A stretch of DNA of 64,000 nt from contig CM069142.1 of NCBI GenBank assembly GCA_035221665.1, forward strand, positions 30,070,001-30,134,000, read 5' to 3'. Of the stretch, positions 1,635-63,848 are shown one piece after another. Under the pieces are notes generated by a model. The model did no database searches, was not told the origin of the DNA, and worked only from the letters and a program-made list of their open reading frames with translations. A program made the translations under genes and the position numbers. This DNA is from Okamejei kenojei. Lineage: Eukaryota. Position 1 is the first letter of the stretch. Each line of letters begins with the position of its first letter.

Positions 1635-1836
1635 GACACAAAGTGCTGGAGTAACTCAGTGGGTCAGGCAGCATTTCTGGAGAACATGGATAGTTGACGT
1701 TTCGGGTCTAAAGAAGCATCTCTACCCAAAACACCACCTATCCATGCACTCCAGAGATGCTGCCTGACCCGCTGAGTTACTCCAGCACTTTGTGTCCTTT
1801 AGTGTATTAATGAACATCTGCAGTTCCTTGTTTCTA
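1635..1836. mobile_element. Penelope-like pseudo-LTR fold-back pair
   Basis: gacacaaagtgctggagtaactcag..gacgtttcggg followed by its reverse complement ..ctgagttactccagcactttgtgtc; ends 13 nt before OTC exon 5. Confidence 0.75.
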
Positions 1837-1849
1837 CCTTGTATTCCAG

Positions 1850-2003
1850 GGTGTTGAGTGGGATGACCGACGTGATCCTGGCCAGGGTGTACAAGCACTC
1901 TGATCTTGAGCAACTGGCGGAGGATGGTACAATCCCAGTGATCAATGGTCTGTCAGAGCTGTACCATCCCATCCAGATCCTGGCTGATTACCTCACGCTT
2001 CAG
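1850..2003 (+). CDS. OTC: Ornithine transcarbamylase, coding exon 5
   Basis: ttccag|G acceptor and CAG|gtaatc donor; 154 nt; translates (R)[51 protein letters not shown], with the carbamoyl-phosphate-binding HPxQ motif. Confidence 0.97.
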
Positions 2004-2129
2004 GTAATCTGGGAAATTTCTGATGGGTCACATTTAATAATTTTCCTGGGGGTAAAAAGGTATAATGTAACTGTATTCACTGTTTAAAGAAATGAACAAA
2101 CACTCTCTAATACCTGAAGTGGCTTAGGA

Positions 2130-2640
2130 ACAGGTCCATCCCAGACCACATGAAATTGCAGAGAATTGTGGACGTGGCTCAGACCATCACACAAACCAAC
2201 CTCCCTTCCATTGACTCCATTTACACCGCAGGCTGCCTCAGCAGGGCATCCAGCATAATCAAGGATGAGTCACACTTTGGCCACTTCCTCCTCCTCTCTC
2301 CCATCAGGCAAGAGGTGTAGAAGTGTGAAAACACACCTCCAGATTCAGGGAGTTTCTACACAGCTGTTAGCAGGCAACAACCGTCCTACCGACAACTAGA
2401 GAATGGCCCTGAGCTACTAACAACAACATTGGAGACCGTCATACTGTCTTTGATCGGACTTTATTGGACTTTATCTTGCACTAAAACGTTATCACGTTAT
2501 CACGTTATGCCCTTTATCATGTAATTGTACACTGTGGGTGTCTTGTAAACATGAATTGTATTTCCGCAACTGGTTAACATAAAACAAAAGCTTTTCGCTG
2601 TACACATGACAATAAACTAAACTCAAACTGAACTCAAACT
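2130..2640 (+). mobile_element. Rex1/Babar-like LINE 3' fragment
   Basis: Degenerate ORF end (cagcataatcaagga..ctctcccatcaggcaagagg..ccagattcagg) and tail ..tgacaataaac(taaac)n. Confidence 0.7.
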
Positions 2641-3279
2641 CAAGAGTTAATGTCTGAATAAGGGTCCCAACCAAAAATGTTGCCTATCCATGTTCTCCTC
2701 AAATGCTGCCTGCTCCGGTGAGTTACTCCAGCACTTTGTGCCTTGCTCAAAATTCCAACATCTGCAGTTCCTTGTGTCCCCAATTAGACGGCATATTGTT
2801 GTCAGCTGGGAGCAGCCAGCACAGAAACCTGACCCATTGAGTTACTCTTTGTATCCTTTTTGTAAACCAGCATCTGCCGTTCCTTGTGTCTCCCTAATGC
2901 CTAATTTGGAAATTGTTCTTCATTTTTATTGATGAGCCTCTGTGGCAACAATCAACATCAATCATGCTGAATATATATGTTCATTTTGCTTTAGGAATGT
3001 CACATGAGGCTTTCAATTTGACCACCGACCAATCCTGTTTTTTATGGGACTAGGTGATCAGTGATGTGACTGTGATGGGAAAGGCAAAAACTTGATGGAG
3101 AAACAAAATGAAGATTTTATTGAAGGAATATTTAAGCTGAAGCCAGAAGTAGTCTATATTTTATTGTGACTGATTTTGATTTAAAAAAATCTCAAGCTGT
3201 AAACTGTTTAACTTGTCTGGTGAGATATCACTGTCTAAGCATACAGCGGGTCAGCTGGAAAGTTGGCCCTGTTATCACT

Positions 3280-3490
3280 GCCTCAGAGGGCGGTGGAGGT
3301 AGGTTCTCTGGATGCTTTCAAGAGCGAGCTAGAGAGGGCTCTCAAAAATAGCAGAGTCAGGGGGTATGGGGAGAAGGCAGGAACGGGGTACTGATTGGGG
3401 ATGATCAGCCATGATCACATTGAATGGCGGTGCTGGCTCGAAGGGCTGAATGGCCTACTCATGCACCTTTTGTCTAGTGTCTATTGTTAT
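3280..3490 (+). mobile_element. CR1 LINE 3' fragment
   Basis: atggggagaaggcaggaacggggtactg..gatcagccatgatcacattgaatggcggtgctggctcgaagggctgaatggcctactc; the same tail recurs at 27540 (+), 30930 (-) and 62090 (-). Confidence 0.8.
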
Positions 3491-4123
3491 GTGCAGGCAG
3501 AGGGCATATGTTTAACCTGGGTTATGTTCGGCTGGGACATTGTGGGCTGAAGTGCCTGTTCCTGCACTGTACACTTCTATGTTTGAGGTTTCGGTGGAGG
3601 AACTCTGGGTCAGGCAGTATCTCTGGACAAAAAGGATGGGTGATGTTTTGGGTCGGAATCCTTCTTCAGACTCGTAACCCTAACCCTACTTCAGCTGCTG
3701 AGTCTGGAGATTTTTACCTTCTTGGAGCCTGTCATTTTAAAAGTTATTATCACTGTACATTGACGACAGAGACCGGCAGAAGGCTTTCAGAATAAGGCTC
3801 GTTAGTAAAGACCACTGCTGACATATACGTAAGGGGTTAACAACACAGCTATCTATTATGTTATGATGTTAATAGCATGCGTGTTGACAGAGGAATGTTG
3901 CTTTTGCCCCTGCACTCTCCTCAAGCGAAAGAGTGAAAAGCACTTTGTACTTCTTAGAACGTTTGGAAGATCAGTATGCCCAAGTTGCAAAAGCTTCCCA
4001 CATATCTAGTCTCCGATGGTGGCATGGGATGCTTCCTTAAATCTTAGTGGAGGAACAAAAATCTTTTGAATGTACAGATTTATCTATGCAGTTCAACATT
4101 AATCCTGTCTGTGTCCTTTTTAG

Positions 4124-6041: not shown

Positions 6042-6204
6042 CTGTTGACTGAGTGACTACAGACATCTGTTTAACTGTTTATGAAAACTCGTACCATCAC
6101 CACAGGAGAACGGTACATGAACCTCTGCAGCAAGGAACTGCCAGATGCTGGTTTACACTGAAGATAGACACAAAAAGCTGGAGTAACCTGTTGTCTCTTT
6201 ACAG

Positions 6205-8867: not shown

Positions 8868-9717
8868 CACAGTCAAGATGCAATAGTGATGGAGGGAGCA
8901 AAGATTTATAAAACAGACTGGGATAGTTGAAGATTCCCACTTTCTCAAGGACAGATTGGGATGATTGATAAATATTAGCCTTGAACACTAATGAAGAAAC
9001 ATTGAATACAACACTTGTCAATTATTCATTGTAATAATATTCCTGCCACATGCTTGTTTATACAGATGTTTTAAATCAGTTGTTTTATCCCTTCTATTAT
9101 CTGTTCTGGATTTTATGCCCATTCCCAGACATTTTCACTAACTTTTGACCAACTTTTAAAAGTAGTCCAGATTGAGGAATTAAGTCATTTCTGAATTTTT
9201 TTCATCTCCTGGCATAGTTGCAACTTCAGGAACATAATCTCTATTTCTGTACACTACCTATGCGCTCCCAATGAGCACCATTATGTGGTACAATAACAGC
9301 ATTTAAAATACATTTGAGCAGATACATGGGTAGGTAAGGTTTAGAGGGAAATGGCCAAACGCGGGTTGGTGGGACTAGCATAGATGGGGCATGACGGTCA
9401 GCGTAGGGACATTGGGCAGAAGGCCCTGTTTCCGTGCCGTATGACTCTATGTGCGAGTGAAAATACTGCATTAAATCTTTGTACCACTAGATAGCAGCAA
9501 GAGCCATCAGTCAGATCAGCTTGCACGCATCTCACTTCAGTAAAATAGGAGTATGATTTCAACACAAGTTACTTGCAACGCAACTTGAGATGTAAAATCC
9601 AATATCTACAAAGAATTTACTTTCTACTGGCGTTGCATTCTTTTTTGGCTAATATTCTGAACACCACAGGAAGGCTTTCCACAACAGAATATAATCACCA
9701 GTGAAGTATTGTAGTAG

Positions 9718-10195
9718 TCACAAAATGTTGGAGTATCTCAGCGGGTCAGGCAACATACCTGGAGAAAAGGAATAGGTAACATTTCAGGTCGGACCCGTTG
9801 AGTTACTCCAGCATTTTGTGTTTATCTTCGGTAGAAACCTGCATCTGAAGTTCCTTCCTATACACAAGTATGAAATTACTGTGTATCGATATTACAGGAA
9901 GTCCTTGCTTTGTAAACCTATATTGATAAACTTAAGTATTTGATTGTTAAAAGAAGAAACAGGTGGTTTCCAAAGAGATCTGAGGTACCTGTCTGAACAT
10001 TTCTTATGATACAAAACACAAAGTGCTAGAGGAATTCAGCAGGTCAGGCAGCATCTTCGAAAAGGTGGACAGGCAACGTTTTGGGTGGGAATGAATAATG
10101 GTCTGAAGAATTGTCCCAAAATGTCTGACCTGCTGAGTTCCTCCAGCACTCTGTGCTTTGCACAAAATCCTGACACCTGCAATTCCTCTGTCTCC
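9718..10195. mobile_element. Two Penelope-like pseudo-LTR fold-back pairs (9718-9862, 10010-10195)
   Basis: Inverted arms cacaaaatgttggag../..ctccagcattttgtg. Confidence 0.65.
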
Positions 10196-10519
10196 ATTAG
10201 ATGACACAAAAACGTTTCAGAGCAATGTATATCGATGAGGCAGATATATCATAAAATAGACCCTTGACATGTTGTAGAAACATTTCCAATGTTCAGATTG
10301 GTCTGTGGACAGACAGAAATCAAGATCTTTATACCTAACAGTGCTACTTTGCAGTTCAGAGAAATGTTTAAATCCTGACCATTGGCAAGGAGCGAGACGC
10401 AGCAAAAGGACATTAAAGTCAAAGCCAGTATTCAAAGTCATAAAGATACAGTGGGCAATCTATCAATTGATGCCTTGAAGCTTGCTTTTGGCCCATTTCA
10501 CAAACAGACCAAATTCAGT

Positions 10520-10803
10520 GTCCTAAATATATTTTCAGCGTCCCTCACCTTCTGTTTTTTCATCTCTGGCTCTTGTCCAACCATCTGCCTATGAAAACCC
10601 CACCTCGGCTGTGCTCCCCTATTACCTGCCGTGCTTTGTCCTGCCCCTTCTCTTTTATAGTTTTCTTCCCACCACAACCTATAATCAGTCTGAAGAAGGT
10701 TCCCGACCTGAAATATCACCTATGCATGTTCTCCAGTGATGCTGCCTGACCCACTGAGCTACTCCAGCACTATTTTTTGTAAACCAGCATCTGCAGTTCC
10801 TTG
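10520..10803 (+). mobile_element. Penelope-like 3'UTR plus pseudo-LTR
   Basis: Pyrimidine-rich UTR, then cagtctgaagaaggttcccgacctgaaatatcacc..gatgctgcctgaccc; reverse-complement match to 58320-58560. Confidence 0.7.
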
Positions 10804-10897
10804 CTATACTTCAACAGTTTCAGTGCAGTTGTCTGGCTGATGTTAAGTATTTTTCTCGGACAAGACTTTAAGAAAATTATGCTTTTTGGGAGATAGT

Positions 10898-11003
10898 ACA
10901 CAAAAAGCTGGAGAAACTCAGAGGGGTGCAGCAGCATCTAAGGAGCGAAGGAGATAGGCGACGTTTCGGGTCGAGACCCTTCTTCAGACTGGTCAGGGAT
11001 CAG
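10898..11003 (-). mobile_element. Penelope-like pseudo-LTR with intact minimal hammerhead core, flanked by a 40-bp direct repeat
   Basis: Minus strand reads CTGAAGAAGGGTCTCGACCCGAAACGTC (10960-10987); 10858-10897 is identical to 11004-11043. Confidence 0.8.
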
Positions 11004-11515
11004 GGACAAGACTTTAAGAAAATTATGCTTTTTGGGAGATAGTTTTCAATAATCGATAATATAACGAGATTAATATAACCGTGGGAGAAAATGGATTGGT
11101 GATGTTTCAGGTTAGGACCCTTATTCAGACTGATTGTAGTAGGGGAGGGGGAGAAGTCTGAGGATGCTGCCTGACCCGCTGAGTTACTCCAGCCTTTCAT
11201 ATCTATCCTTGGTATAAATCTGCAGTTCCTTTTCGTTACATTTCATATAATCTTGATAATTTTGCTTGCAGTATACTTTTGGGGTATATATTGTTACACC
11301 AGATTTGCATTGGAGCGCTAAACTATGTGGATTAAAAAAATATTAGTGCTTTCATGCCCAATTCAGTGATCTTATTATTCCATCAGTAGAAACAAGGAAC
11401 TACAGATGTTGGTTTACACCAAAGATAGACATAAAGTGCTGGATTAACTCTGCGGGTCGGGCAGTATCCCTGGAAAATAAAAGGTGATGTTTCGGGTCAG
11501 GATCCTTTTTTTTGT

Positions 11516-12880: not shown

Positions 12881-13030
12881 AATATAGACAATTTTAAGCG
12901 CACTGATGTAATAGCATACACTGGTCCCCAATGTGTTTATACGAGCAGAATGGGTGGGTTTCATTGTACCCTGGCGTATAAGACACTAAACTTATCTGAA
13001 TTTGACTTGCTGAAGTGCTCTCATGCTGAT

Positions 13031-13128
13031 CAGTCTGAAGAAGGGTCTCGACCCGAAACGTCACCCGTTCCTTCTCTCCAGAGATGCTGCTTGTCCCGCT
13101 GAGTTCCTCCAGCATTTTGTGTCTATAT
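13031..13128 (+). mobile_element. Penelope-like pseudo-LTR with intact minimal hammerhead core
   Basis: CTGAAGA-A-GGGTC-TC-GACCC-GAAA-CG-TC at 13035-13062. Confidence 0.8.
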
Positions 13129-13207
13129 TTTACTTATGCTAACTGGTTAGGTCCACACATTAAAACAATTATTGCAAATTAGCATGAGATGAGCATTGGC
13201 TCTTCAA

Positions 13208-16927: not shown

Positions 16928-17566
16928 ATCCTGTCCTACAGCTTAGCGTCCACAATGAAGGAACGTTCATGGGAGAATAAGATGTAAAGCTTCAAACAAT
17001 TGTGTAACTTTACAATTAATTGATATTAAATTACAGCATTTAACTAAATTATGATGATAATGCCCCTTGTTAGTGGTAATTAAATAGCAGCGGTCCATTT
17101 TTCAGATCCTTACATCAAAGGAAGCTACAATAATGTGTGAGCATAGTCCAGTTATTGAGGGTCACCACATCAGTTTGGTAATATTTTGGACGCAAATACA
17201 GTTTGCTAATTAAACTTTATTATCTGTGGAGATATTATTATGCGTTGAAGGAAACAAAGTGGTGGAGTAACTCAGCAGGTCAGGCAGCATCTATGGAGAA
17301 CATGGATAGGTGACATTTTGGGTTGAGACCCCTCTTCAGACATATATCAATCATACCTTAATCTCAATCATATCTTGCTGTCTCCATGTAATCTTCAGAA
17401 ATACTTGTTCGATGCTGATTGGGAGTAGGCACTTTGTACAGAATTTCCTATTTGATGTTATAATTGGAAACAGAAGTTTATGGTCTAATTAAATTTTCCT
17501 CCTGATATTTTGAAGTCATCTAGGTGTTTGAACTACAGATTTATCCTAGACCGCCTTATTTTGAAG

Positions 17567-17572: not shown

Positions 17573-18787
17573 CAAAGGTTATGTTTTGACAGTCAATGTT
17601 TAGTACTGCTGAAAATGACACAAAGTGCTGGAGTATGTCAGCGGGTCAGGCAGCATCTCTGGAGAACATGGATAGCTGACGTTTCATGATCCTTCTTCAG
17701 CCATCTTTAGTACTGCTAACATTTGCATTGACACCACCAACAACAACAACAAGGCCCACACATGTATAACTTTAACACAACATAAATATCCCAGGGCATT
17801 TTCCAGGAAAACTACAAAGATTAATAATTCTATTGCAAAGTCCTAGCACTTGCCAAGCAATGATAACGCACAGCCAAGAATTTCCTATCAATTAATTTTA
17901 ATAGATAGAAAATAATACAAATTTTGCAAAGTTAGGAGTGCAAAAACGAATAATGTATCCTAATGTCCAAATGGCAGAGGTGTTTGAAGAGTTAATGTTA
18001 CGGTAAAATCAGCCAGTGAAACATTATACTCACCTAACCTAGTTCCAGCACTTTAGATACTAGCTGCTGACATAATCTTCTCAAAAATATTTTGTATTCA
18101 ACTTTAGGGACTCAAAGTGTCATCGTCATCTTTTACATTCACTGCACTCTCCCCTGATTTGAAGGAGTTAGAATAAGTGGATTGCCTATTCATAGATTAT
18201 CCTATTTTAATGACTTCCAAGGGATGTAGCTCACAGTAATCTTCATCTGTTCAGTGTGAAGGCAAGTACTGTTTGCTAATTAAACTGTATTATCTGTGAT
18301 ATTTTCTCTCAATCATACTCTGCTGTTTCCATTTAATCATGAGAATTGCAAGGTAGCGGTTAATTGGGAGTAGGCACTTTGTACAGAACTTCCTCGCTGA
18401 TATTATAAGCGAAGACAGGAGATTGTGGTACAATTAAGTCCCCACCTCAGAAATAATTGCGCTGCTTTGCTCCAGAAAGGAATTCATATGTATCAATTGG
18501 AATGAGCTTGTAAATTATAGAATTGTAGAAATTTGTGACAGAGAAGGAGGCTTTTAGGCCCATTTTATCTATTTTGATCCAGCACAACTTGTATAACTGT
18601 CCGTTCATGCCATGTTTAATGAAACGAGGCACCACCTCTACCATTTTACCCTCCTATTGACACATCCTGCGGCCTTTCATGGAACTGTGAACACACAATT
18701 GAAGGGCTATTTGTTCCTCCACAACATTCAATATCCACTGAATACTTTAATATCCAATCCTTTGCTTTATTATGCCAACACAAATTC

Positions 18788-23735: not shown

Positions 23736-25149
23736 AAATGGGACATGGCAAATTAAAATATAGACAATAGTCCTGTGGATGAATGCAAGGTTGGAGGTCA
23801 GCAAATAGACAACATACGCACAAACAGACAGTTAGATATAGAGAGGTAAGCCATTTGGCCCTTAAAGGTTGCCTCTGCCATTTATCAAGATCAGGACTGA
23901 TCTTCTACCACAAGGCCAATTTCCAGCTGTATTCCAATATCTTCGATTCCCTCAATGTCCAGAAAACTATTCATTTACATTTTGAATGCAAATGGACTTC
24001 CATGACCTTCCAGGGCAGAGAATTTCAAAAGGTTCAATGCCCTCTCGTTTTTTTTTTACATACCTTCAATGAAAAAAAAAATCTAATTTCAGTCATAAAC
24101 TTGCTCCTTATTCTCAAATTGTTCTCCCTGGTAATGGGCCCCCATTCAGGGCGAACATCCTTCCTGCACCATATCTTCACTAGGTCTGAAAAAGGGCTCT
24201 GACTCGAAATATAGCCTATCCATGTTCTTCAGAGATGCTCACGATAAGCTGGAGTAACAACGGGACAGGCAGCATCTCTGGAGTGAAGGAATAGATGATG
24301 TTGCAACCCTTCTTCAGACTGTGAGTCAGGGGAGAGGGAAAACAGATATGGAAGGGGCAAAGAGAATGTAAGGTGTGAAAATGACAGATCAAAGCAGACG
24401 ATGATCAAAGAAATGAAGAATGGTTTGAAGGGATATGTCTTTGATCAAGTTTTTGGGAACTTGATTCATTGCTGCAATGGTACTTTTTTGCCCGATTATG
24501 TTCTAGCGAAATGCTTTGGCAAATCTCACTACAGCTCATTAAAAAGGTGATATATTCACGCGGCTTGCTGCGATATTTGTAAATGCAATTTAATTATAAC
24601 TTCTTTGTGTTAATGTTTTATTTACTTTTCCAAAACAAAATGCATTGTATTGCTTTGGATGGTGAATGGTTATCACAGCAGGCAGCCTATATTTTATACA
24701 GGTTCACAGTTGTTTTGGATATCCTAAAAATTAGAAACTCTAATCATTTTGATGGCATCAAGGCCATAAAATACAGGAATGGAGTGTCGCCATTTTATTA
24801 TGGATTAGATTGGCGTGAAATGTTAGTCAGGTGTGTCATCTGGTTAGTGTGGTAATTTCCATTGCCTCAATGTTTAGAAATGGTGAATGTTTAGTTTCCT
24901 GCCTGATTACTGAGAAAGCTAATGGGAAAATTACATCAGTGCTTTGCTAGTTATAATAAAGATTCCATATATAGGGAATTATAAGATGGGTTGAGAAATA
25001 AATTTGAATTTGTTCTTTGTTCTTGTTTCATGTGTTTCTTTTAATCCCCTTTCTGCATAGAGTGTATGATGTCCTTATTGGTTTCCAAGACAGTACATTG
25101 AAGTTTGAACCCAATCATAGGAAATTCAAGATTCTTAAGATTTCAGAAA

Positions 25150-39595: not shown

Positions 39596-39669
39596 ATGTG
39601 CCTGAATTTATGTTGTTATCTAATCCAATTTGAGCTCAAGATGAATTCATCGATTCCAAATCTGGCAGA

Positions 39670-40120: not shown

Positions 40121-41399
40121 TTCAGCAGCTTCTTCGTTGGCCTTCCCTCCACGATTAGTTCAGAAATCCAGATGTCTGCAGAGAATTGCACCACGTTTAG
40201 CTCCACTTACAAGACCTCAGTTACGACAGCTGGCCATGCCCCCCAGCAAACAACTCCGTGGAAATCCAGGTTTCGACTGAGAAGGGGCAAGTAATCTTTG
40301 AATTTTGAATATGCCACCTCGGCACATGCCCACTCATCTGTATGAGCCATTTTGAGGAAATAAACAGAAAAATCATTTTTTTAAAGAGGGAGGATATATA
40401 ATCAGTAATATGCTCCAGTTCAAAGAGAGAACTTTCTGTGACAAATATAGATGAGTATCTGTACACCAAACCCTCATCTAAGTTCATATCTAAATAATAG
40501 CTCGTGCTCAAATAGAATATGTCCTAGCAACTCATTAAGGTTGCCAGGGACAACGGAATTTCTGCCACATTTGGTCTCTAAGCATTGTAAATGGTGTCAA
40601 TACAATAATCGAAGGGGGAATGGAAATGCGTGCAGAATGCAAGGAGATGAATTAACACGGTGTTGATTAAGAATAGGAGCAGAGTGCTATAAATTATTCA
40701 GTTCTATTTAAGACTACTGAGAAGGTGGCAACTCAATAATTACCAGTATCGAAAGATGTAATTAACATGCAGAAAGGATGATCCAGGGAGATCTTTGTAA
40801 ATTTTTCCCCCAGATTCAGATATATTTTGACATAGTGTATATCTTCTTACCCACTACTAGTGCAGTACTGTGTATTGAAATGTATTAATTTGTGTTTAAT
40901 GACAGCAGTAATCATTGCCACTTCCACCACTCAGTTGTGCATGCAAGATGTTTTTGATGCACGCCACTCATACAGATGTTGGGTTCACAGAGTCGGCTTC
41001 ATCTTAAGTTAAAGTAGAACCTAGCCTGTAAAGTCTGGCACCTGGATCTAGCGTCACAAAGGTCCACTTTAAGCCAAAAGCTTACTCTTTCTATCAAATG
41101 TCTTGAAGGAGGTCCAAAAGGTAAAGTCACAAAGTCATACAACTTGGAAAGAGGCACCTGAGCCCAACTTGCCCACACCAACCAACATGTCCCATCTACA
41201 CTAATCCCACCTGAAAGCCTTGCTCTTTCCTTCAGAGTGCTCCAACATCATCTTTTGACCCGGTCTAAACTATGAAGCAGGGTGAGATGTTTGTGCTTCT
41301 TCTTAGAAATAGATTTATGGAGGTAGTTCTGTGATCAGTGGCTTTACGGAAGAGGACAGTACAATATCATCCTTGTAGTCTAACATATTAGGGACCTAG

Positions 41400-41500
41400 G
41401 GTACACAAAAGGCTGGAGAAACTCAGCGGGTGCAGCAGCATCTAAGGAGCGAAGGAGATAGGCGACGTTTCGGGTCGAGACCCTTCTTCAGCCGTCTGAA
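41400..41500 (-). mobile_element. Penelope-like pseudo-LTR with intact hammerhead core
   Basis: ggcgacgtttcgggtcgagacccttcttcag; near-identical to the copy at 10898. Confidence 0.8.
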
Positions 41501-43737: not shown

Positions 43738-46039
43738 CTTGTCAAGATAAAGTCTGATATAGCCTGGCCCTCATCGCCCAGTGATATATTGTTCTACAAA
43801 ACAATCCTGAATGCAGTCTATGAATTTAAACTGTAAAGAACCTTTATGAGTGTAATTTTCCGAATCTACAGTATTTTAAGATTGAGGTTCCCTAAGGATT
43901 TTGCAATAAAATTCCATTCGCTTTTCTTAGTTATTGATTACAGGATATGAGAAAGGGAACAAAATAATAGAAAAACAAAACAAAGTGCAGTGCAATTTAG
44001 CAGGCCCGCCAGCATCGCTGGAGAACACGGATAACTGATGCTTCAGGTCGGAACCCTTCATCTTCTGTCGTGGGGTAGACTGACTGACCCCCTCCCCAAT
44101 CTTTGCACATCCCCAATCCTTTCCACTCGTCATTTTAATTTCATGTTTCTTGTTTTTTATGGCTGTTGGCAGATCAGGTTCCATCTCATCGTATCGTTTG
44201 AGCCAAAACGTCACCCATCCATGTTTTCCAGAGATGCTGCCTGACCCGCTGAGTTACCAAATGCTTTGTGCCGTTTTTTTAAACCAGCAGCTGCAATTCC
44301 TTGTTTCAACAATATAATGGAATAAGTTCTGGATAGCACGTGTTCAGCATTAACATGTATCCTTATGTGCTTCAAATTCAGGAACCCATTTGCCTTCTGT
44401 ATCTTAGCGTAGATACCATCATTGATGAAAGTAACCATCTATGATTACAATATTTCAAAAAGTTTGTGGTATCCTGTTCAATCTGAAGTGTTGAATGAAG
44501 AAAACATTTTGTTTGAAAATTCAGATCTGGTTAGTGATGTGATTTTCATGATGAGGTTGTGTTCACCTTCATGCTTTCACCATTGATGTCAATGGAATTA
44601 ATATCAGAATCAATATCAGAATACAAACTTCCGTATAAAATGGTGATCAATTTCTAGGCAGCGGTATCATCATTACTTATCAAATTTTTTACCTATTAAG
44701 AATCACATAGAGGGTTGTGAATCTGTGGAATTCTCTGCCTCAGAAGGCAGTGGAGGCCGGTTCTCTGGAGGCTTTACCATTTATTAATAGTCAATAAAAC
44801 AGGATGGTGCATTGAATAATGGAAATCATCATACCCAAAGGAAAATTGACACATTTAATTTTATTCTGACAAAGGCTTCCATAGCTTGTGCTCCGCGTGC
44901 TTCAACTCCATTTTGAACTGCTGGTATTGGTGAAGAGTTCTTGTCCCTTTGTTCTATGTTGACAATTAGAATCAAAGGAATATAAAGATGTGCAGCACAC
45001 TATATATTCATGCATATATACATACACACATGTCAGTATATGTACAATAGCTATACATATATATATATATAAGAATTCGTCTCATGTGGCATATAATTTT
45101 TGAACAAGATTACGAGAGAAATTGTTTTCAAAATGTAATCCAGAAATTAGATCAATTAGTATCCACCTATCAGGTGCTAAGTGCACAAAAATCAATTTTA
45201 CCTGGAGGAGATGGAGTTTTAATGATCGAACCTGGGTGCAATTACAGCCATTGCACATTTTGATTGGCCATAACCGTTGTGTCTGATCTAAATGCAGCTC
45301 AGGGGTCCACTTACTATGAAATCATGCTGCACCTGCACTGTATCTTTCACTCCCCACTCACAAAAACGAGACCTCTCATTTACAGAGAACAACTATCGTA
45401 CTGACATTCAGAGAAAGAGAGCAAAATTCACTGAAGTCTGGCGCTAGGGAGTGAATTGAATAATTTTCATCTTGCATTGTTGCAGACCGCATCTGCCAGC
45501 CTCACTTTGCGATGCTTGCAACTGTGACAAGCTCATTTGGTCCACTGATGATTAGTGCCTTTATGTTTTATGCACATCAGGGCAATGTACTGCCATCCCT
45601 GCCTCGCTGATCAGACAACACTGACAGTGGTGTGGGGCCACTGCCAGCATGGGACGCCACCAGAGCAGGCCATCACCTGGGAGATGGCCACACACAAAGG
45701 GGATCACCACGTTCCCCTCCCCCGTGACATTACATGGCAACCTATAATGAAATTGGTTATGGCTTCCATGGGGATAGGTCCTTTAAAGTTTAAAGGCTCT
45801 CCAGAGATCACTGTAGCAAAGACGTGTGAGTTGTGAACTTGTCCCGCAGGTCTCATAATCTAGAGGGAGGATATTTTCATTCATTTTAGAGATTTTGTTT
45901 CAGGAGGCCCCGATCTGCAGCCAGTGTTGCATGCAGCAGCATTTTACAGTGTCTAAATGAGGCCAATCCAGTTCACATGAGGGCAGAGAAGAGCTTCTTC
46001 AGCAGGTTATACTCCATTGTGTTCACACACACGCAATTA

Positions 46040-46326: not shown

Positions 46327-47449
46327 TGCAGCCCGTTTGCTTGTTTGATATTTAATTACATTATCACTTATCTGAGTCACTTTAATAAACTATTATATTT
46401 GATGCACAAACTCATTACCTTTTCTGCTCTGGAACAAGGCAAGAACTGAGAGGGATAAATTCAACTTTAATTACATGTGTTTAATTGTCACATGTGCCAA
46501 AAATGGAACAATTATATTTTTGTAGAAACAAAGAACTGGAGATGCTGGTGTAACACAGCAGGTCAGACAGTCTGAAGAACATTCCTGACCCAAAACATAA
46601 TCTATCCATGTTTTCCTGAGCTGCTGCCTGACCTACTCCAGCACTTTGTGTCTTTTCTTTAACAATGAAATTCTTACTTGCAGCAGCATAAAAAGTCTGT
46701 AAACACAGTATTCATGGATAACATAATACACAAAAAACAATAATTTTTTTTTTAAGAAGACAAGATTAGTGAAATAAAAGCCTAAACCCCCTCGTGCAAC
46801 CAAGACAGTTCGTAGTTCAAGAATTAGGTTACTGCATTCACAAAGAAATCGGATTGGAAGTCCTACGACATTCCTATAAATGCTGATATCATTCATCCCT
46901 CTTACATGATGCTTGGACTTGAAAGCAAAAGATTATTTTTGTTATTTTTATACCTAGTCACGTGTCATTCAGCTGTTCACTGGCTCAATTCTACATGTCT
47001 TAAATTTTTCACCTAAGAATCTCCTTGACGGCTTGGTATTAAGTTTACTGTCGGTCAACGGACACCCTGAAAGCAATACTCAACTATTTTTCAGTATGTT
47101 TATTTCTCCTGTTGAGCTAAGAGAGGATAAGATAATTTTTCACTTGAACTTACCAGTGAATAAACATTGAATCAAAACATCAAGGTATAATCAAAACTAA
47201 GTTAGTACATTTTATTTATTTTCTCCTGTAAATTAAAATATTGCTCTCAGTTTATTGAGAACTTGGGTAATTAGGATAGTAGAAAGGGCTCAAAATCAAA
47301 ATAATTGTGTGTGCAAGTGGCTGGGGATGAATTTGTGGAGTAGTGGTCTGCTGAGGGAAAACGTAGACAAGTTAAAGGACAAGGTAATACCACAGCTTAC
47401 CACATCAGTCATGTCAGCACAGACCAAGTGGTACCTAGTGCAACATGGA

Positions 47450-51438: not shown

Positions 51439-51660
51439 AACACACGTGCTGGAGTAACTCTGTGGGTCAGGAGGTATATCTGGAGAACATGGATAGGTGA
51501 TGTTTCAGGTCGGGACCCTTCTTCAGACTGCAGTTAAAGAAGGGTCCTGAACGGAAACATCCCCTATCCATGTTCTCCAGATATACTGCCTGACCCTCCA
51601 AATTACTCCAGCAATTTGTGTCCTTTGGTGTAAACCAGCATCTGCAGTTTCTTGTTTCTG
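51439..51660. mobile_element. Penelope-like fold-back element with 14-bp flanking direct repeat
   Basis: ccagcctgatttag at 51425-51438 and 51661-51674; inverted arms between. Confidence 0.8.
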
Positions 51661-52901
51661 CCAGCCTGATTTAGTCCTGCCAGTAGTTTTTAATCCTAAA
51701 GCTTCTCCTGTCCCCTTGATTGTGTAATTAGAGGAATTTACCAGATAAGTTTAACTTCTGTAGTAAAACTGTATGCAGATGCAGTGAGTCAATGTCAACA
51801 GTTGCACGTTTATCTGGTAAGTGGTATTTGATAAGTGCTTCGATTCTTTGAATTTCGGAGTGTATCTGATGTATATGATGGAAGAAAGAAAGCAAGTCTA
51901 GAAATCCTGTTGGGTCCTGGTAAGCATGCAGCATGGTTTAGGCTTTAAATATTCTGCTTGCAGTGCTAGCAAAGGCAGGCAGCCCTCCAGTGATGCAGAA
52001 ACAAAGAACTGCAGATGCAAGCGAATTAATAAAAGTGTATGTTTGTGTAAATCTGCAACTGCAGTTCCTTGTATCGCCAAGCAATAGAATGCTGCTGCCG
52101 GTAAGAGGATATATTAAAGTACAAAGGACATTTGGGAAATTGTACCTGTTATTTGAACAGAGGTGGTATTTGATAGAGGTGATTAAAATGATGAAGAATA
52201 GATCGAAACAGACTCTTTCCAATGGTTAGGTATTTAGAACAAAGACGTGTAGATATCAGGTTAAATGTAAAAGATCTAGTGTGGTAAACAGGATTTTTGT
52301 AAACATGTACATTGTGAGAAAATGGCTGCAACTAAGTAATTATAGTTGAGAAAACTATTTTGGTATAGATTAAACGGGTGGGAGAGGTGTAGGACTTAAT
52401 AAGGCGCAGAGGAATTGATTTCATTGCTTAATGTAAAGGCCATATCAACCATTTAAATTGTAATTTATTGGCAAAAATTAAAATTTAAAGTGCATGTGCA
52501 AATAGCCACGTTACCCCATTTTGACAATTTCAATGAAATGTTTGTACTGCCAACTTCGTATCATTAAATTGTAAGTTCAATTGCTGCTCTAGTAACTTTT
52601 TTGGTTCCAAGTTAAAACAGAAAAGTTCCTCTCCCTTACGTAACTTTGGCGTGAATGAAGGTATGTTTTATTAAAGCAACAATGAACTTCTTCATAGAAA
52701 ATGAATAATGCCCTGCCCTGTTGGCATCGAGTTGACCCACGAGTACCCCGAGTGACTCCGTGTTGTGTGAGTAACCAAGTTGTTTTTATGTTTTTAAAAA
52801 CTTTTTTGCATTGATCTCTATTTTGAGCGGCCGCGGACACCGACAGCAGACACACACCCAATAAAAATTTTTAAGGAAGAAGCTCGGGTGAACGACATTG
52901 A

Positions 52902-53030: not shown

Positions 53031-53264
53031 GACTGGCTTCAGAGGAAGGAACATTTCACACAGATACAAACAGATAGAGTTATATTTACTATCAGACAAT
53101 CCAATGTCCCATAATATGTTCTTTAAATATTAACTGTTGAAAGTGTGGTGCCGTGGAGAAGGGATGATGAGGTCTGGTACAAGTTGACTTTGTTTCAGTA
53201 AGCCGATGTCTGGTTGATCGAAAAGACGAGAGGAGGATTTGAAGGATTATGCTGGAGAATCGAG

Positions 53265-53432
53265 GGTACACAAAAAGCTGGAGAAACTCAGCAGCATGCA
53301 GCAGCAACTAAAGCGAAGGAGATACGTTTCGGGTCGAGACCCTTCTTCCTAATAAGGAAGAAGGGTCCGACCCGAAACGTCGCCTATCCCCTTCGCTCCT
53401 TAGCTGCTGCAAGTTTCTCCAGCTTTTTGTGC
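53265..53432. mobile_element. Penelope-like fold-back pair
   Basis: cacaaaaagctggagaaact..cgtttcgggtcgagacccttcttc / gaagaagggtccgacccgaaacgtc..agtttctccagctttttgtg. Confidence 0.75.
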
Positions 53433-54719
53433 CAAATAGAGCCGCGAAGCCTCTTCATTGTTCCCCTGGTTTGGATTGCTCCCAGGAGAGGGGGCACAAA
53501 GAAAAATTTGGCATTTTTTCTGTGGAAGGGGAGGGCAGTATAAAATCGAAAGCATTGTGCAGTCTTAAACAATTAAACAGCTTCACTTTTAAAAGCAAAG
53601 ATACACGTTAAATTACACGGCCCCCCACAAATCGCCTCTCAATTGCTTCCCATATTATACTACTTTGGTTCATTCAGATTATAACCACGATTCTATGGTT
53701 AAACGCCACGGGCCATTACGTTACTGCAACAGTTTCCACTTTTAACTTGCTAATTTGTTGGAAAAAATCAAACAAGTCACGAGAGTTTTTCCCGAGTAGT
53801 TAGCGCCACGAACAAGTTTTTTTTGGCTACGTGATCAACGAGTGAAAACTCGGGGTCACTCGTGGGCCAACTCGCACAGTGAGACAGGGGTTTAAGTGTT
53901 AGCAGATTTGAGAGTATTGCTCCTTCACAGACACTTGTCAAATATCCAAAAATAATCTAACAATTAAAAATGAAACCCCATAAATATTCAACAAATCTTA
54001 AACCCATTTCACATTGGAACTTCAAATTAATATTTCAGACAGGAAAACTTTGTCAAATGAAATTTAAATCACTTGGAAATAATTTCTGCCTCTCTCATTT
54101 CAAAGTACACAGGAAAGTCAGTAGCTCCTGATAGTACTGCAGTCTGTTGAAATAGGCTGGGATATTTAGCGGGTCTTGTTCAACAATATATTAGAGAATT
54201 AGAATCAGAATATAGCAATCTTATCTCACTCCCAGATTTTTGACGCGCAAAATCATTTTGGGTATCTTTCCCGCAATCCTGCACTAAAATGCAGGAGATG
54301 AAGTAGAAATGTCACAATGAAGAGAGTAATTCTGATTTTAACGAGTGTCAGGCAATGTGTTTGAACAAAGTGTGTATTGATTGAATGTCCGACAGTGTGG
54401 GGTTTGGATGTGAAGCTTGGATTAGCAAGCATGCATGGAACGGTATAATGGGATGTGGCGAGTCAAATAGTATCTGAAGCGAGTGGTCAGCTGGTGGAAG
54501 AATTAACTCAGTAGGTCAGGCAGCATCTCTGGAGAACATGGATAATGAGTGTGTAGCTTGCACTTCTATTTCAAGATAAAGGCACTAACTGCTAACATTG
54601 ACACCTTAGCATTCTACTGAAAGCAATGAATAATTTCCACTTTATTATCTTTCTTTTTCACATGCTTTTTATTTTCCTTTATCTAGCCTTTTTCCCTCAG
54701 TTTATCAAATCCCTTCGCT

Positions 54720-55465: not shown

Positions 55466-56574
55466 CCTGACCATGACTATTGGAAGAGGAGCAGTTTACA
55501 TCTTTTTGTCTTACTTATATTTATCTTAAATCAACCAAAACCACAACTTGTTAACAAGTTATTTATCTCATTTACTATTTGCAGGCATTATTATGAATAA
55601 ATTGGCTGTTGCATTTGCCTTCAACAGTAACTATGTTTAACTGTCCTGAAACTCACTGACCTGGTCAGTGGTCATGCATGTCAGTTGATAACAGCATTTA
55701 CCTTACATCTCTCGTTTTGATCTGTTGCACGTTAATTCCTCACTTTCACACACACATGCTGTCCCATCCCTTCTCTCACCATCATGATGTGAATCAGGAA
55801 ACACAAGAAACTGCACGTGCTGGAGGAACTCAGTGAGTCAGGCAACATCTGGGGAGAGAATGGACAGGCAATGTTTCAGGTGAATCTAATCTGTCTGAGA
55901 TGGGTCCCAAGCCCAGTTTTACCTGTTCATTCCATCCCCAGATGCTACCTGGCCTGCTGAGTACCTCCTGCACTTTGTGCTTTGCTCACGATGTGAACAG
56001 TGCAGCATGAAAAAGGAAGCAATATAGCACTGAGCTCCTGACCTGTCACCCATGTAACTTATATTTGTATTACTTTTTTGAAACATATTGAACTATTTTT
56101 AGATCCTGATTTCAGTTCAGTTCATGGATTTTACAAGGGACATTAGCAGCTCATTTCTCTGCACAGAGGGTGGTGGGTATATAGAAAGAGCTTCCAGAGG
56201 AAGCAGCAAAGAAGGATATAATTAGGTTTAAAAGTCAATTAGACAAGCACATGCATGGGAACGATTTTGAGGGATATGGGCCAAACACAGGCAAATGGGA
56301 CTAGCTCAGATAGACGTCTTGGTTGCCATAGATGAGTTGGTCTGAAGGGCCTGTTTCTGTGCAGTATGATTCTATGTACATTAACCCCATTTGGTGATTT
56401 ACAACAAAACATTATATTTGTTGTAAATATTAGTTTTTTTTTTGTAAATGCAAGGAATTGTGCAAGTGGAGTTGGCATAGCCAATGCATTTGTTAAAAAA
56501 TATTTTATATTATTACCCATATCACACATCTGAGCTATGCTTTTACAAAATTGTATTCCCTTCGTTTTGAGTGC

Positions 56575-58300: not shown

Positions 58301-58321
58301 TACATTTTATTTTCTAGACAG

Positions 58322-58945
58322 AATGAACTGCAGATGATGGTTTACAAAAAAAGACACAAAATGCTGGAGGAACTCAGCAGGCAAAGCAACATGTTTCCTG
58401 TCAGGACCCTTCTTTAGACTTGAGTTGGGAGGGGGGGGGGGGGGGGAGAAAGCTGGAAGAGAGGTGGGTGATGGGACAAAGTCTGGCAAGTGATAGGTGG
58501 ATACAGGTGAGAGGTTTTTTTTTGATGGGCAAAGGCCAGAGTGGAAAAGACAAAAAAGCATGAGATAATAATATAAGGATGAAGGGCTGTGAAATGTGAA
58601 TCAGATGAAGGACAAGGTAGGCTGAAGGGCTGTATAGCTCCAATAGTCTCTGACTCGTGATTATCTGAAAGAAAGGGCAGAGTAGCTGCGCATCCAGGTG
58701 GGGCACAGGCAAGATTGTTTGTACGTTAGTTACCTAAAATTGGAGAATTCAATGTTAATATCTTTGGGTTGTAAGCTTGGGTTGTAAGCTGCCGAAGTGG
58801 AATATGAGGTGCTGTTCCTCCAGTTTGCATGTGGCCTCATTCTGGCAATGGAGGAGGCCCAGGACAGAAAGGTCAGAATGGGAAGGGAAGAAAATATGAT
58901 TAGCAACCGGGAGATCCAGCAGGCCTTGGTGGACTGCTGAGTGCT
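58322..58945 (-). mobile_element. Penelope-like retroelement 3' end: GIY-YIG C-terminus, 3'UTR and pseudo-LTR
   Basis: Minus-strand DLPVANHIFFPSHSDLSVLGLLHCQNEATCKLEEQHLIFHFGSLQP/KDINIEFSNFR* (a 13-bp duplication causes a frameshift), followed by the same pseudo-LTR arm. Confidence 0.85.
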
Positions 58946-60941: not shown

Positions 60942-61227
60942 TTTAGAGTTTAGAGTTACAGCATTGAAACAGGTCCTTTGGCCCACCGAACGCATGCCGA
61001 CAATTGGTCACCTGTTCACACGAGTTCCATGTTATCCCACCTTCTCATCCATTCCCGACACGCTAGTGGTCATTTACAGAGACCAAATAACCTACAAAAC
61101 TGCATGTTTTTTGGATGTGGGAGGAAAACGGAGCACCCGGAGGAAACCCATGTAGTCACAGGGAGACTCAACTCAGACAGCACCCGAGGTCACGATCAGA
61201 ACCAGTTCTCTGTTGGTGTGAGGCAGC
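60942..61227 (-). mobile_element. HE1-like V-SINE
   Basis: Reverse copy (tgtgggaggaaaacggagcacccggaggaaaccca). Confidence 0.8.
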
Positions 61228-62057
61228 GATTTCATCGACAAAGAAAAAAATAATGTTCATCAGACCCTAAACACATAAATCAAGCTCTTCCAGCGACACT
61301 AGTCTTATGACTGGATGTGTTAGAACATGAGCTGAGCTAGTTAAGCACTGCTGGGTCTCTTCATAATCCAACATGTAAAAACAGAAGTAACAGAGAACTG
61401 CAGATCCTGGTTTGCAAAAATCATAAAAGCAGAAAGCGGTTCCATCTCAGAAAGTCTTCTTTACAATCTAACTAGTTGGAGGCTCCACCTCAACCACTTG
61501 GGCACTGAAAAAGGGCACATGACAAAGAGATGAAGCAAACATTGGCTTTTATTAACAAATATTTGTTTGCAATTTATTTTACTTGAAACATGGCAGCTTC
61601 TTAGCATTCTGTACCATGGGAATTAGCAGAAGACGAACAGCGGTAGAGTTTACTTATACTATAACTGTGAATATTCTTCAAAAGTAGTTATTAGCTGTGA
61701 AATGCTTTAGTATGTTCTTCAGTCATAAAAAGGGCTTTTTATAAATGCAAGGAAATTCTTTCTTTGGAATAGTGATTTAGCAAGAATCACTTTAGGCTGA
61801 TTGTTTTCATTGTACTGTCTCCTGCATAAGAGTGAGTAACCTCCTCTGAATACACTTCTTCCAAACTTAAGCTACACAGAACACTTAATATTGTTCCCTG
61901 AAAATCAAGGAAATCTAAAATAAAGACAAAAAATGTTGGTAATACTCTCAGCAGGTCAGGCCATATCTGTGGGAAGAATTCACGTTTCAGGTCAAACACC
62001 TTTTGTCAGAACTGGGGGAGGAAGTTGCAGGGGGGGGGGGGTGGAGAGGAAATTATA

Positions 62058-63303
62058 TCTATATAATTAAAAGTCTCATCTTACATAGAAACATAGAAAT
62101 TAGGTGCAGGAGTAGGCCATTCAGCCCTTCGAGCCTGCACCGCCATTCAATATGATCATGGCTGATCATCCAACTCAGTATCCCGTACCTGCCTTCTCTC
62201 CATACCCTCTGATCCCCTTAGCCACAAGGGCCACATCCAACTCACTCTTAAATATAGCTAAGACTTCCTGTCTGCACTGTATGTTGATTTTAGAAAAAAC
62301 GCTACCATATATCGCTATGATATTTGGCCATCTTACAGTCCTCCTCCGCTGTGCAGGCCCCGAAGAATTTTCCCATTGATGAAAAATAAAAAAAAGTTAT
62401 GAGTGTTTAAAAAGCCTTGAGATTCTCTTGCCTGTCAATCCCCGCGGTGAAGGTAACGCCCCTTCAGGGGGGAGGGGGGGTTGGGGGGGTGGGCGGGACA
62501 GGACTATAAAACCCCGGATGCCCGGACGTGACTCTGTCACACTGCAAGATCGGAGGGAGAGGCCACGACTCTCATTCTAAGCTGTGAATCAACTGAACTG
62601 TGAGTCTGCAATGTACTTGCAATAAATGATTTGTTAGCCCTCATTGACAATGCCATGAGTTGTTCGACCTGTTGTCCTGCCTGTGCTTGAAACTGCAATG
62701 CTTTATTAGGTCCGACTGTGTTTGGAAGGAATAAATGCTTTATTTGGTCTGACTGTGTTTGGAAGGAATAACTGCTTTATTAGGTCCGACTGTTTGGTTC
62801 AAAAGTCCCGCTCATTTCGTGACTTCCACTTAGTGGACAGCTCGCGCTGATTGCGGAAGTGCCGCTGACTGCGGAATCCCCAAAGTGGAGAGGCCGCGCT
62901 CAGCCGTGTGAGTATTCAAGAAAGCTTACTGCTGTGTGAGTCANNNNNNNNNNNNNNNNNNNNNNNNNNNNNNNNNNNNNNNNNNNNNNNNNNNNNNNNN
63001 NNNNNNNNNNNNNNNNNNNNNNNNNNNNNNNNNNNNNNNNNNNNNNNNNNNNNNNNNNNNNNNNNNNNNNNNNNNNNNNNNNNNNNNNNNNNNNNNNNNN
63101 NNNNNNNNNNNNNNNNNNNNNNNNNGTATGTGTTTGTGAGTGTATGTATGTGTTTGAGTGTGTGTGTGTGTCTGAGTGTGTGAATGGTCTCAGTGACTGG
63201 GCTGCCAAAACAAGAATCCATTCGGCCCACAATTTGCTTACTAGCCCACTGGAAACCAGTCCCTTTGGCCTACAACACCATGCTAGTGCTCCAGAAAGCG
63301 CCC

Positions 63304-63335
<32 letters not shown>

Positions 63336-63428
63336 ACTGGCCAGCAATATTGGAATTGATGGAGAAGTGGAATATTGTGTTGGGGGACCAGCCCTCCCGT
63401 GTGAAGCTGGGACCCCCACTTAGTCTAG
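62058..63428 (+). mobile_element. Non-autonomous Helitron-like element
   Basis: A|TCTATATAATTAAAAGTCTCATCTT start and ..CCCACTTAGTCTAG|T end; nested CR1 fragment at 62084-62260; 37-bp minisatellite at 62697-62797; contains a gap. Confidence 0.65.
62944..63125. other. Assembly gap
   Basis: Run of N. Confidence 1.
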
Positions 63429-63723
63429 TTGTTAAATTATAAGGTAGGGTGGGAGGCTGTTTCTGATAGGGTTAAACTGGAGACTGTTGAAATCTGATCA
63501 CTTTCTCCAGATCAAAGGTACAGTCATTTGAAGTGCCCAAGGTCTGCCTGCCCTTTGTAAGATATGTGGAACAGCATTCTTTCATGGCTCTTTATATTCG
63601 TATTCCACTCCCTCTTGCTCTCTCAACGAGTGTTATGTCTCTGACAGTCTTGTTCAACTTCTGCTATGTTATTTTTCTGAGATTCATAGAGTCATACAGA
63701 CTGAAACAGACACTTCAGCCCAA

Positions 63724-63848
63724 CTGAAGAAGGGTTTCGGCCCGAAACGTTACCTATCTCCTTCGCTCCATAGATGCTGCTGCATCCGCTGAGTTTCTCC
63801 AGCATTTTGTGTACCCTCGATTTTCCAGCATCTGCAGTTCCTTCTTTA
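63724..63848 (+). mobile_element. Penelope-like pseudo-LTR with hammerhead core, 15-bp direct repeat, nested in a CR1 tail
   Basis: CTGAAGA-A-GGGT-TTCG-GCCC-GAAA-CG-TTA; acacttcagcccaac at 63710-63724 and 63849-63863. Confidence 0.8.

Follow-up and report, generated by a model that had tools for sequence, protein, structure and literature searches.

The question raised by this locus is what the short hammerhead-bearing repeats that crowd it are, how they were inserted, and whether they could act on the transcripts of the genes in which they lie. The window, namely the whole stretch of 64,000 nucleotides from contig CM069142.1 of Okamejei kenojei to which all counts below refer, carries on its plus strand exons of OTC (Pfam OTCace) and exon 1 of TSPAN7, the two host genes named in a preliminary description of this DNA. 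That description interpreted the repeats as a non-autonomous, retrozyme-like or MITE-like element amplified by Penelope machinery and placing potential self-cleavage sites and RNA hairpins in both pre-mRNAs. The reading favoured here, with a probability of roughly 85%, is that they are short pieces of the 3' end of a Penelope element containing a minimal hammerhead, inserted singly and dead on arrival by the enzyme of full-length elements, and decaying without selection.

The repeat family and its relation to Penelope-like elements

A profile built from the window copies (E < 0.01) detects 46 arms at 32 loci, covering 6.7% of the window, in agreement with the about 30 copies initially counted; applied to the reversed window, the same profile gives no match below E 0.5. 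These loci consist of 19 singles (8 on the plus strand and 11 on the minus strand), 12 head-to-head pairs and one tail-to-tail pair. The unit had been described as ~100-130 bp long; it comprises ~90 bases followed by an optional 3' tail of ~40 bases, the 3' ends being bimodal (19 of 46 arms stop at the core end, 20 at the tail end and 7 elsewhere). A coarse sorting by motif distinguishes at least four sequence subfamilies, all with the same 5'-end pattern, and the five tailed arms translated have no reading frame in common that crosses the unit without a stop. More than 100 bases of upstream sequence are present at only 2 of the 32 loci. The single loci are the following, starting with the two long copies and those with an intact core.

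58312..58943, minus: longest copy; the decayed C-terminus of a Penelope coding region of GIY-YIG type (58730-58943, its frame shifted by a short duplication), then ~310 bases of 3' region, then unit and tail; core mutated and partly deleted
10441..10808, plus: second long copy, in which ~250 bases of that Penelope 3' body precede the unit and its tail; the core at 10690 is intact and sense to OTC, with the palindrome AUAU and a 2-bp helix I
10898..11003, minus: young, tailless solo arm of 106 bases with its core intact at 10987; exact 40-base duplication on both sides (10858-10897 and 11004-11043)
13024..13129, plus: tailless solo arm; core at 13035-13062 intact, with a 2-bp helix I, sense in an OTC intron
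41401..41499, minus: tailless solo arm; core at 41491 intact but lacking helix I
63720..63849, plus: tailed solo arm with its core intact at 63724; starts at the CUGA box directly after a 15-base duplication and therefore lacks helix I
2645..2780, plus: solo arm with tail; core mutated
2828..2892, plus: 3' fragment with tail; profile match
3594..3676, minus: solo arm; G12>A
6126..6187, minus: 3' fragment with tail; profile match
11385..11510, minus: solo arm with tail, lacking the 5' core
17246..17345, minus: solo arm; G12>A
17610..17705, minus: solo arm with a deletion of stem II; exact duplication of 12 bases
37865..37970, plus: old, diverged arm with tail; profile match
39663..39768, plus: solo arm; core mutated
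52036..52079, plus: tail-only fragment; profile match
54502..54544, minus: internal fragment; profile match
61387..61421, minus: tail-only fragment; weakest match (E 0.003)
61919..62035, minus: solo arm; ~25 bases of C-rich upstream body; core mutated

The Penelope origin, already proposed, is borne out by the longest copy, in which the arm at 58417 comes after the decayed reading frame of a Penelope coding end. A run of 56 residues of this frame matches 14 database proteins with 58-69% identity; in these relatives, the match is the C-terminus, preceded by a CX4CxxC finger and by a C-C..YIGET motif, and GIY-YIG matches were obtained in 4 of the 7 relatives scanned, all below the Pfam cut-off. 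In addition, the copy with the arm at 10690 and the longest copy have ~250 bases of body in common (E 6e-17). This sequence context identifies the unit as the pLTR, the terminal repeat of a Penelope-like retroelement. It lies directly 3' of a GIY-YIG-type coding end, as is characteristic of endonuclease-positive Penelope-like elements, whose other marks, namely inverted 5'-truncated head-to-head copies, a one-sided tail and variable target duplications, are found here as well. Since neither a full-length element nor a reverse transcriptase region was seen in the window, the limits of the pLTR and its clade are putative. The Neptune clade, marked by such a finger ahead of a C-terminal endonuclease with the CCHH motif, is a possible affiliation: the relatives of the remnant carry a CX2-5CxxC linker finger before the C-terminal GIY-YIG domain, although the window fragment (58730-58943) itself spans none of this finger. 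According to the available sections of PMC8557442, the combination is shared by Neptune and Nematis, whereas Penelope/Poseidon lack it.

The motif within the unit is, as first recognised, the minimal type I hammerhead of Penelope elements: the majority letters of the alignment give the core boxes, the extra base after A9, the G10.1-C11.1 pair and the palindromic helix III stretch. The available text of PMC4209133 reports the same features for metazoan Penelope hammerheads (CUGANGA and GAAA boxes, an extra base A9/10.1, the G10.1-C11.1 pair and a palindromic 15.1-16.1 stretch), together with mostly single truncated copies and some close pairs on opposite strands. Helix I of 2 bp is like that of D. 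virilis in the same source, whereas stem II measures 4-5 bp here and 7-8 bp in Schistosoma. No cartilaginous fish is named in the main-text sections of that article that were consulted, and a search of the shark and skate literature returned no relevant title on this family, which may be named in Repbase or Dfam, both outside the scope of the search.

Inverted pairs, target duplications and 5' ends

All eleven inverted pairs noticed previously are present, and a twelfth, at 43972-44311, is added to them. Together with the tail-to-tail pair, they are:

1630..1837: head-to-head; tail on plus arm; no intact core
9714..9862: head-to-head; tail on plus arm
10011..10187: head-to-head; tail on plus arm
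11084..11233: head-to-head; tail on plus arm; minus arm retains ~25 bases of upstream body
24160..24344: sole tail-to-tail pair; both cores mutated
25744..25947: head-to-head; tail on plus arm; duplication of 17 bases, 2 of them mismatched; core at 25838 (minus) intact, predicted to be buried in the hairpin
37524..37780: head-to-head; 35-base tandem duplication of the core on minus arm; 12-base duplication with 1 mismatch; G12>A in all three cores
39898..40126: head-to-head; tail on minus arm; 8-base duplication
43972..44311: head-to-head; 120-base centre; tail on plus arm
46521..46657: head-to-head; tail on minus arm
51440..51661: head-to-head; tail on plus arm; exact duplication of 14 bases; core at 51526 (minus) intact, predicted to be buried in the hairpin
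53249..53435: head-to-head, youngest-looking subfamily; partial tail on minus arm; both arms lack C3-U4
55795..55988: head-to-head, degenerate; tail remnant on minus arm, by eye

A full tail is carried by exactly one arm in 10 of the 12 head-to-head pairs and by both arms in none of the 12, and the central junctions of all 12 differ. The two arms of a pair are more similar to each other (0.81, 10 pairs) than unrelated arms are (0.74, 661 comparisons; p 0.0015). Significant target duplications of 8-40 bases flank 7 of the 32 loci, compared with 4 among 256 control pairings of mismatched flanks (p 2.6e-5), those around pairs measuring 8, 12, 14 and 17 bases; the remaining 25 loci have none that is significant.

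Inverted pLTRs with a one-sided tail are a known product of Penelope insertion. For endonuclease-positive Penelope-like elements, the available sections of PMC3846280, PMC8557442 and PMC11167929 describe 5' truncation, inverted head-to-head copies, solo pLTRs, a tail of 30-40 bases at one end with two discrete 3' ends, and target duplications that vary or are missing. The family is thus real and largely ordinary, a good local example of a pattern already described. The window nevertheless differs from these published insertions in that nearly all copies consist only of the pLTR, with a density of roughly one locus every 2 kb, that one duplication is 40 bases long, and that the 5' ends cluster at the hammerhead edge, a clustering that those sections do not describe. 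The window shows the one-sided tail and the inverted copy at high density. The sharply clustered 5' ends and a young copy with an apparent empty allele (see below) would make such a genome useful for studying how cDNA synthesis by Penelope elements terminates and how their inverted copies arise, a question that the same sections leave open.

The preferred origin can be laid out in steps. With the unit as the end of a Penelope element, the element's endonuclease would, in line with published biochemistry, nick A+T-rich DNA, and its reverse transcriptase would start on uncleaved RNA at one of two sites ~40 bases apart, thereby giving rise to the two 3' ends. Synthesis would mostly halt close to the hammerhead's 5' edge, and roughly one event in three would include a second, inverted copy made from the same template, yielding a head-to-head pair with its one-sided tail. 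Insertion would leave variable target duplications such as those seen at several loci, after which the cores would accumulate the mutations that most of them now show.

The 5' ends had been noticed to lie at or near the CUGA box and are indeed non-random: among the 29 arms reaching the zone, 23 end between -13 and +3 of C3, compared with 7 of 36 in the 24 bases that follow this zone (p 1.5e-6), and the singles bounded by duplications start at -16, -5 and 0. This pile-up lies at the 5' edge of the ribozyme rather than at its cleavage site, and it is sharper than random truncation predicts. Ends defined by ribozyme cleavage were considered and rejected, with only 1 of 37 arms starting near the cleavage site. 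Another explanation is that the template was a short RNA starting at the hammerhead 5' edge, from a transcription start or a splice junction within the pLTR, and copied in trans by Penelope enzymes in a SINE-like manner. The tight 5' ends are in its favour, as are the pyrimidine-rich tract and AG found directly before the core in the five longest copies, the D. virilis Penelope intron that ends at the 5' side of helix I, and the excess of short over long copies. We nonetheless consider it unlikely, for the single arms have in common no upstream sequence resembling a spliced exon, which was looked for, the 5' ends spread over ~20 bases, the coarsely sorted subfamilies all display the same pattern, and hundreds of contigs per sequencing run extend into the C-rich upstream body (loose ends 10991 and 11006); stalling in this C-rich tract would account for the pile-up equally well. 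The broader proposal that a short RNA or a strong-stop cDNA, beginning at the hammerhead edge behind a splice-acceptor-like tract, is inserted alone and en masse and is still moving is doubtful to the same degree. Were it true, the ribozyme fold or a splice site, rather than cleavage, would determine how long a SINE-like by-product of the Penelope elements of this lineage is, and this by-product would seed introns with long hairpins by the thousand.

A contig of run X4 joins 10857 to 11004, without the arm at 10898..11003 and one copy of its duplication; this young copy appears to be absent in another sample. As repeat copies swamp the contigs of the four runs over 9500-11560, a stretch that does not include 13035 and in which depth is not copy number, a single junction is readable. 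None of the metagenome contigs scanned contained a 32-base motif of the unit, and the sequencing runs found with 6000-7300 included no RNA run among those listed.

Core decay and the host pre-mRNAs

The four best-preserved cores (13035, 10987, 41491 and 63724) read as originally stated. Altogether, 7 of the 29 arms spanning the core have it intact, close to a rough neutral expectation of ~5, with 3 in the sense orientation (10690, 13035 and 63724) and 4 antisense. Helix I is confirmed to be ~2 bp in most arms; it measures 0 bp at 41491 and 63724 and reaches 5 bp at 24185 and 25838 only by means of flanking sequence. The 5-bp helix I pointed out at 24181-24218 does exist and, as was said, adjoins a mutated core (G8>A).

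As at any other CpG, decay has affected the essential G12: it is mutated in 13 of 37 arms, versus 78 of 242 at other CpG positions (p 0.71), and rare substitutions are as frequent in the core (12/310) as in the rest (109/2460; p 0.77). Non-CpG core positions, on the other hand, show 93% consensus identity versus 80% for the rest, and fewer departures when scored by subfamily (18/310 versus 274/2460; p 0.003), these positions being more conserved in two of three tests. We read this conservation as constraint on the master elements combined with end-trimming by the profile, and it also fits some selection on the copies. Rfam hammerhead models gave no match up to E 10 in the window, while Rfam microRNA and plastid matches over the pairs were set aside as reflecting long hairpins, far below gathering scores. 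Most copies are mutated and likely inactive, and the family is likely decaying without selection; the window illustrates that inserted hammerheads decay.

With regard to folding, the pairs are predicted, as anticipated, to form long RNA hairpins in host introns; that of 51440-51661 reaches -130 kcal/mol (z -16), a value that none of 200 shuffles matched. Stem II has a probability of at most 0.18 in five monomers, and for 13035 and 10987 the predicted catalytic dimer, the form addressed for minimal Penelope hammerheads by Lunse et al. (as cited in the available text of PMC6765202), lies ~20 kcal/mol above the best dimer fold. Such energies ignore tertiary contacts and proteins, and the available sections of PMC11167929 report cleavage by a Penelope hammerhead with its protein present.

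Working self-cleavage sites in the two pre-mRNAs, first envisaged as potential ones, are improbable: one of the three sense intact cores lacks helix I, and the palindromes of the other two (AUAU at 10690, ACGU at 13035) mismatch each other. Cleavage of OTC or TSPAN7 pre-mRNA is therefore judged unlikely, given the small share of intact cores, the CpG-like decay of G12 and the predicted burial of the core in the pairs. The few intact cores would cleave rarely, since helix I of solo arms is 0-2 bp, a matching sense partner is needed and the pairs would bury the core. Retention of intact intronic cores for cleaving or regulating these transcripts might be suspected from the three sense cores, two of them 2.3 kb apart in the same OTC intron, and from the conserved non-CpG positions. 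It appears highly improbable in view of the near-neutral number of intact cores in both orientations, the mismatched palindromes, the low predicted stem II probabilities and the unfavourable predicted dimer. Any action of the hairpins or cores on host pre-mRNA would matter for gene regulation, and no sign of it was seen here.

Retrozymes and MITEs

A separate retrozyme-like or MITE-like family does not agree with the absence of head-to-tail arrays of the full unit, the individual junction of each pair and the duplications of 8-40 bases. Non-LTR retrozymes (PMC7229834; bioRxiv 10.64898/2026.07.22.740005) are likewise short, non-coding and related to pLTRs, carry a type I hammerhead, also occur as monomers and have been reported in the one chondrichthyan sampled (bioRxiv 10.64898/2026.07.22.740005). 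However, they are arranged head to tail in arrays whose units measure 150-450 bases, and they have canonical hammerheads and circular RNAs, whereas the window copies are dispersed, inverted and minimal. That these would be dispersed retrozyme monomers spreading through circular RNA is very hard to uphold, because the window holds no tandem array of the full unit; moreover, the hammerhead is of the minimal form, with a solo helix I of 0-2 bp, and not of the canonical form with loop 1-loop 2 contacts, the long copies lead into a Penelope coding end instead of another unit, and the copies do not start at the cleavage site. The sole tandem repeat in the window is the 35-base duplication at 37582-37654, in which both cores are mutated.

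MITE copies are typically uniform in structure: they share one internal junction, their terminal inverted repeats are symmetric, and the duplication around them has a fixed length. A palindromic element of this type moving as a unit is scarcely credible here: although long inverted repeats make up 12 of the 32 loci, with a significant duplication around the whole pair in 4 cases, no two pairs have a central junction in common, the ends are unequal since the tail is on one side only, the duplications around pairs vary from 8 to 17 bases, and the arms are the end of a retroelement. Separately from this family, the window contains a lone HDV-like ribozyme candidate at 51278-51343.

Extent of the family and its Penelope origin

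The hammerhead sequences reported in the preliminary description were present at its named places as described when the window was read directly. Searching the window with an iterated core profile yielded 42 arms, an arm being one copy of the ~90-base repeat with or without a ~40-base 3' tail, and a longer profile including upstream bases and the tail found 46 at E<0.01, the reversed window giving none below E 0.5. The arms occupy 4294 bases (6.7% of the window) and form 32 loci, namely 19 singles (8 forward, 11 reverse), 12 head-to-head pairs and one tail-to-tail pair. OTC exons lie at about 4170, 6400 and 14570 and the first exon of TSPAN7 near 21540, all on the forward strand; since no further TSPAN7 exon was found in the window with one motif, the loci beyond 21620 probably sit in the first intron of this gene. 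In four sequencing runs bearing four organism labels, 164,000-187,000 contigs per run match a 2-kb stretch of the window, nearly all on arms; this is not a copy number, but it shows a very high abundance of the family in the genomes behind these runs. Judged from the other repeats of the window, the source is probably a cartilaginous fish. A literature search, judged by title, gave nothing relevant on the family in sharks or skates.

The family is real, was correctly spotted, and is mostly explained by known Penelope biology. Upstream of the reverse-strand arm at 58417 lie about 310 bases, preceded by a decayed reading-frame end at 58730-58943, whose stop-free 56 residues share 58-69% identity with 14 of 17 candidate proteins. 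In an alignment of nine of these 14, the matched part is the C-terminus of the relatives, behind a CX4CxxC finger and a C-x2-C..YIGET motif; such a finger marks Neptune and Nematis elements (PMC8557442, excerpt). Four of the seven relatives scanned matched Pfam GIY-YIG, each under the curated cut-off, and the window's own coding piece gave no Pfam match. Besides, about 250 bases of the body upstream of 58417 are also present at arm 10690. These similarities identify the unit as the terminal repeat at the 3' end of a Penelope-like element with an endonuclease, likely of Neptune type, and the Penelope derivation first proposed is thereby borne out.

The same proposal had likened the units to retrozymes or MITEs, and neither likeness is supported by the copies in the window. 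These lack the uniform structure of MITEs and, in contrast to retrozymes (PMC7229834, in part), they lack tandem-array organisation and canonical hammerheads. By the features testable in the window, the family is truncated and inverted debris of the terminal repeats (pseudo-LTRs, pLTRs) of Penelope-like elements.

Truncation, pairing and insertion

The 3' ends are bimodal, 19 of 46 lying at the core end, 20 about 40 bases beyond and 7 elsewhere. In 10 of the 12 head-to-head pairs the full tail is carried by exactly one arm, the remaining two having a partial tail on one arm, and in none by both. Likewise, published Penelope-like elements include inverted 5'-truncated copies that lie head-to-head and carry a tail of 30-40 bases on one side (PMC3846280 and PMC8557442, excerpts), and the tail has been linked to two internal reverse-transcription start sites, uncleaved RNA being the main template (PMC11167929, in part). 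Arms of one pair are more alike than arms from different loci (compared for the 10 pairs whose arms overlap sufficiently, leaving out two), and the centres of all 12 head-to-head pairs differ; each inverted pair therefore arose separately, both arms likely coming from one template.

Significant target duplications (8, 12, 12, 14, 15, 17 and 40 bases) were detected at 7 of the 32 loci, versus 4 of 256 mismatched flank pairs. The longest is exact and flanks a 106-base copy at 10898-11003 (duplication and insert, 10858-11043), exceeding the 8-10 bases given for Penelope copies in rotifers. In one 203-base contig of X4, one of the four runs, 10857 is joined to 11004. This looks like an empty allele, but a single contig may also result from an assembler skipping from one duplicate to the other.

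The 5' ends pile up a short way upstream of the core. Of the 29 arms reaching this zone, 23 stop within -13..+3 of C3 (hammerhead numbering), compared with 7 of 36 ending in the 24 bases downstream of it, and no more than 1 of 37 begins close to the cleavage site. Because the profile is a poor model of the upstream sequence, a number of 5' ends may lie further up; arm 10987 reaches -16 as judged from its duplication. Pairs with short centres have the same 5' limit. We favour either stalling, which could occur in the C-rich tract, or ordinary element transcripts whose RNA 5' end lies nearby. A splice junction could also produce the clustering. Longer copies carry, directly before the core, a pyrimidine-rich tract and AG, possibly the acceptor site of an intron in the pLTR:

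10660-10689, pyrimidine-rich tract and AG
11129-11155, pyrimidine-rich tract and AG
24318-24345, pyrimidine-rich tract and AG
58418-58445, pyrimidine-rich tract and AG
62011-62040, pyrimidine-rich tract and AG

The D. virilis Penelope intron terminates at this same position relative to the hammerhead (PMC4209133, in part); no common upstream exon was found among the window arms. Lastly, a transcription start site could account for the clustering. The D. virilis intron and promoter have both been described (PMC2377424, excerpt).

State of the hammerhead cores

The majority sequence of the arms shows every feature listed for the minimal Penelope hammerhead, namely the two boxes, one additional base following A9, the G10.1-C11.1 pair and a palindromic stretch at 15.1-16.1 (PMC4209133, excerpt). 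The core is intact in 7 of the 29 arms spanning it (17 further arms do not), about 5 being roughly expected under neutrality. Two of these seven have no helix I, and two lie within inverted pairs for which stem II has a predicted probability of 0. The essential G12, within a CpG, has mutated in 13 of 37 arms, which matches the rate at other CpG positions (78/242). With rare substitutions as a proxy for post-insertion changes, the core is not depleted (12/310 versus 109/2460 outside). Against a reading of neutral decay, non-CpG core positions match both the overall consensus and that of the subfamily more closely than other positions do. Active lineages that retain the ribozyme and diverge in other parts would be expected to leave such a pattern; weak selection on inserted copies may also be compatible with this.

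Dimer cleavage requires two sense copies, and one inverted pair supplies one. Intact cores on the sense strand are those of 10690, 13035 and 63724, the palindromes of the first two mismatching each other, and the sole tandem cores in the window (37582-37654) are both mutated. In the pair 37524-37780, G12>A is common to all three cores and a loop change to two of them, either because the template ribozyme was already dead or because the arms were homogenised. Reported activity is low even for dimers (PMC4209133, in part), and 8 of 9 frog dimers tested did not cleave (preprint 10.64898/2026.07.22.740005, excerpt). In a lizard Penelope element, the hammerhead needed the element's protein in order to cleave (PMC11167929, excerpt), which leaves activity likely for full-length elements.

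Other elements in the window

A candidate HDV-like ribozyme, single in the window and antisense within the presumed TSPAN7 intron, scores 30.4 bits (E 4.5e-4) with the Rfam mammalian CPEB3 model, whose gathering score is 35. By eye, it has P1 of 6 bp (first pair G-U), P2 of 6 bp, P3 of 3 bp, a 2-bp P1.1, a weak P4 and a C in J4/2, with CPEB3-consensus-like sequence around P2-P3-L3. No retroelement frame was seen behind it, and literature titles gave no shark example.

51278-51343, reverse strand, candidate HDV-like ribozyme
11481-12667, 34472-35377, 56239-56910, 59630-60157, decayed LINE-type reverse transcriptase frames
48510-48668, 52902-53030, 62944-63125, three assembly gaps totalling 470 N
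824-1480, 4831-6042, 18782-19063, 26452-26761, copies of a repeat of roughly 300 bases
36685-36998, 43436-43739, 46039-46325, 54724-54975, and others, further copies of this repeat

This second abundant family (our repeat families D6, D8-D10, D12 and D14) looks like a tRNA-derived SINE, possibly HE1-like.
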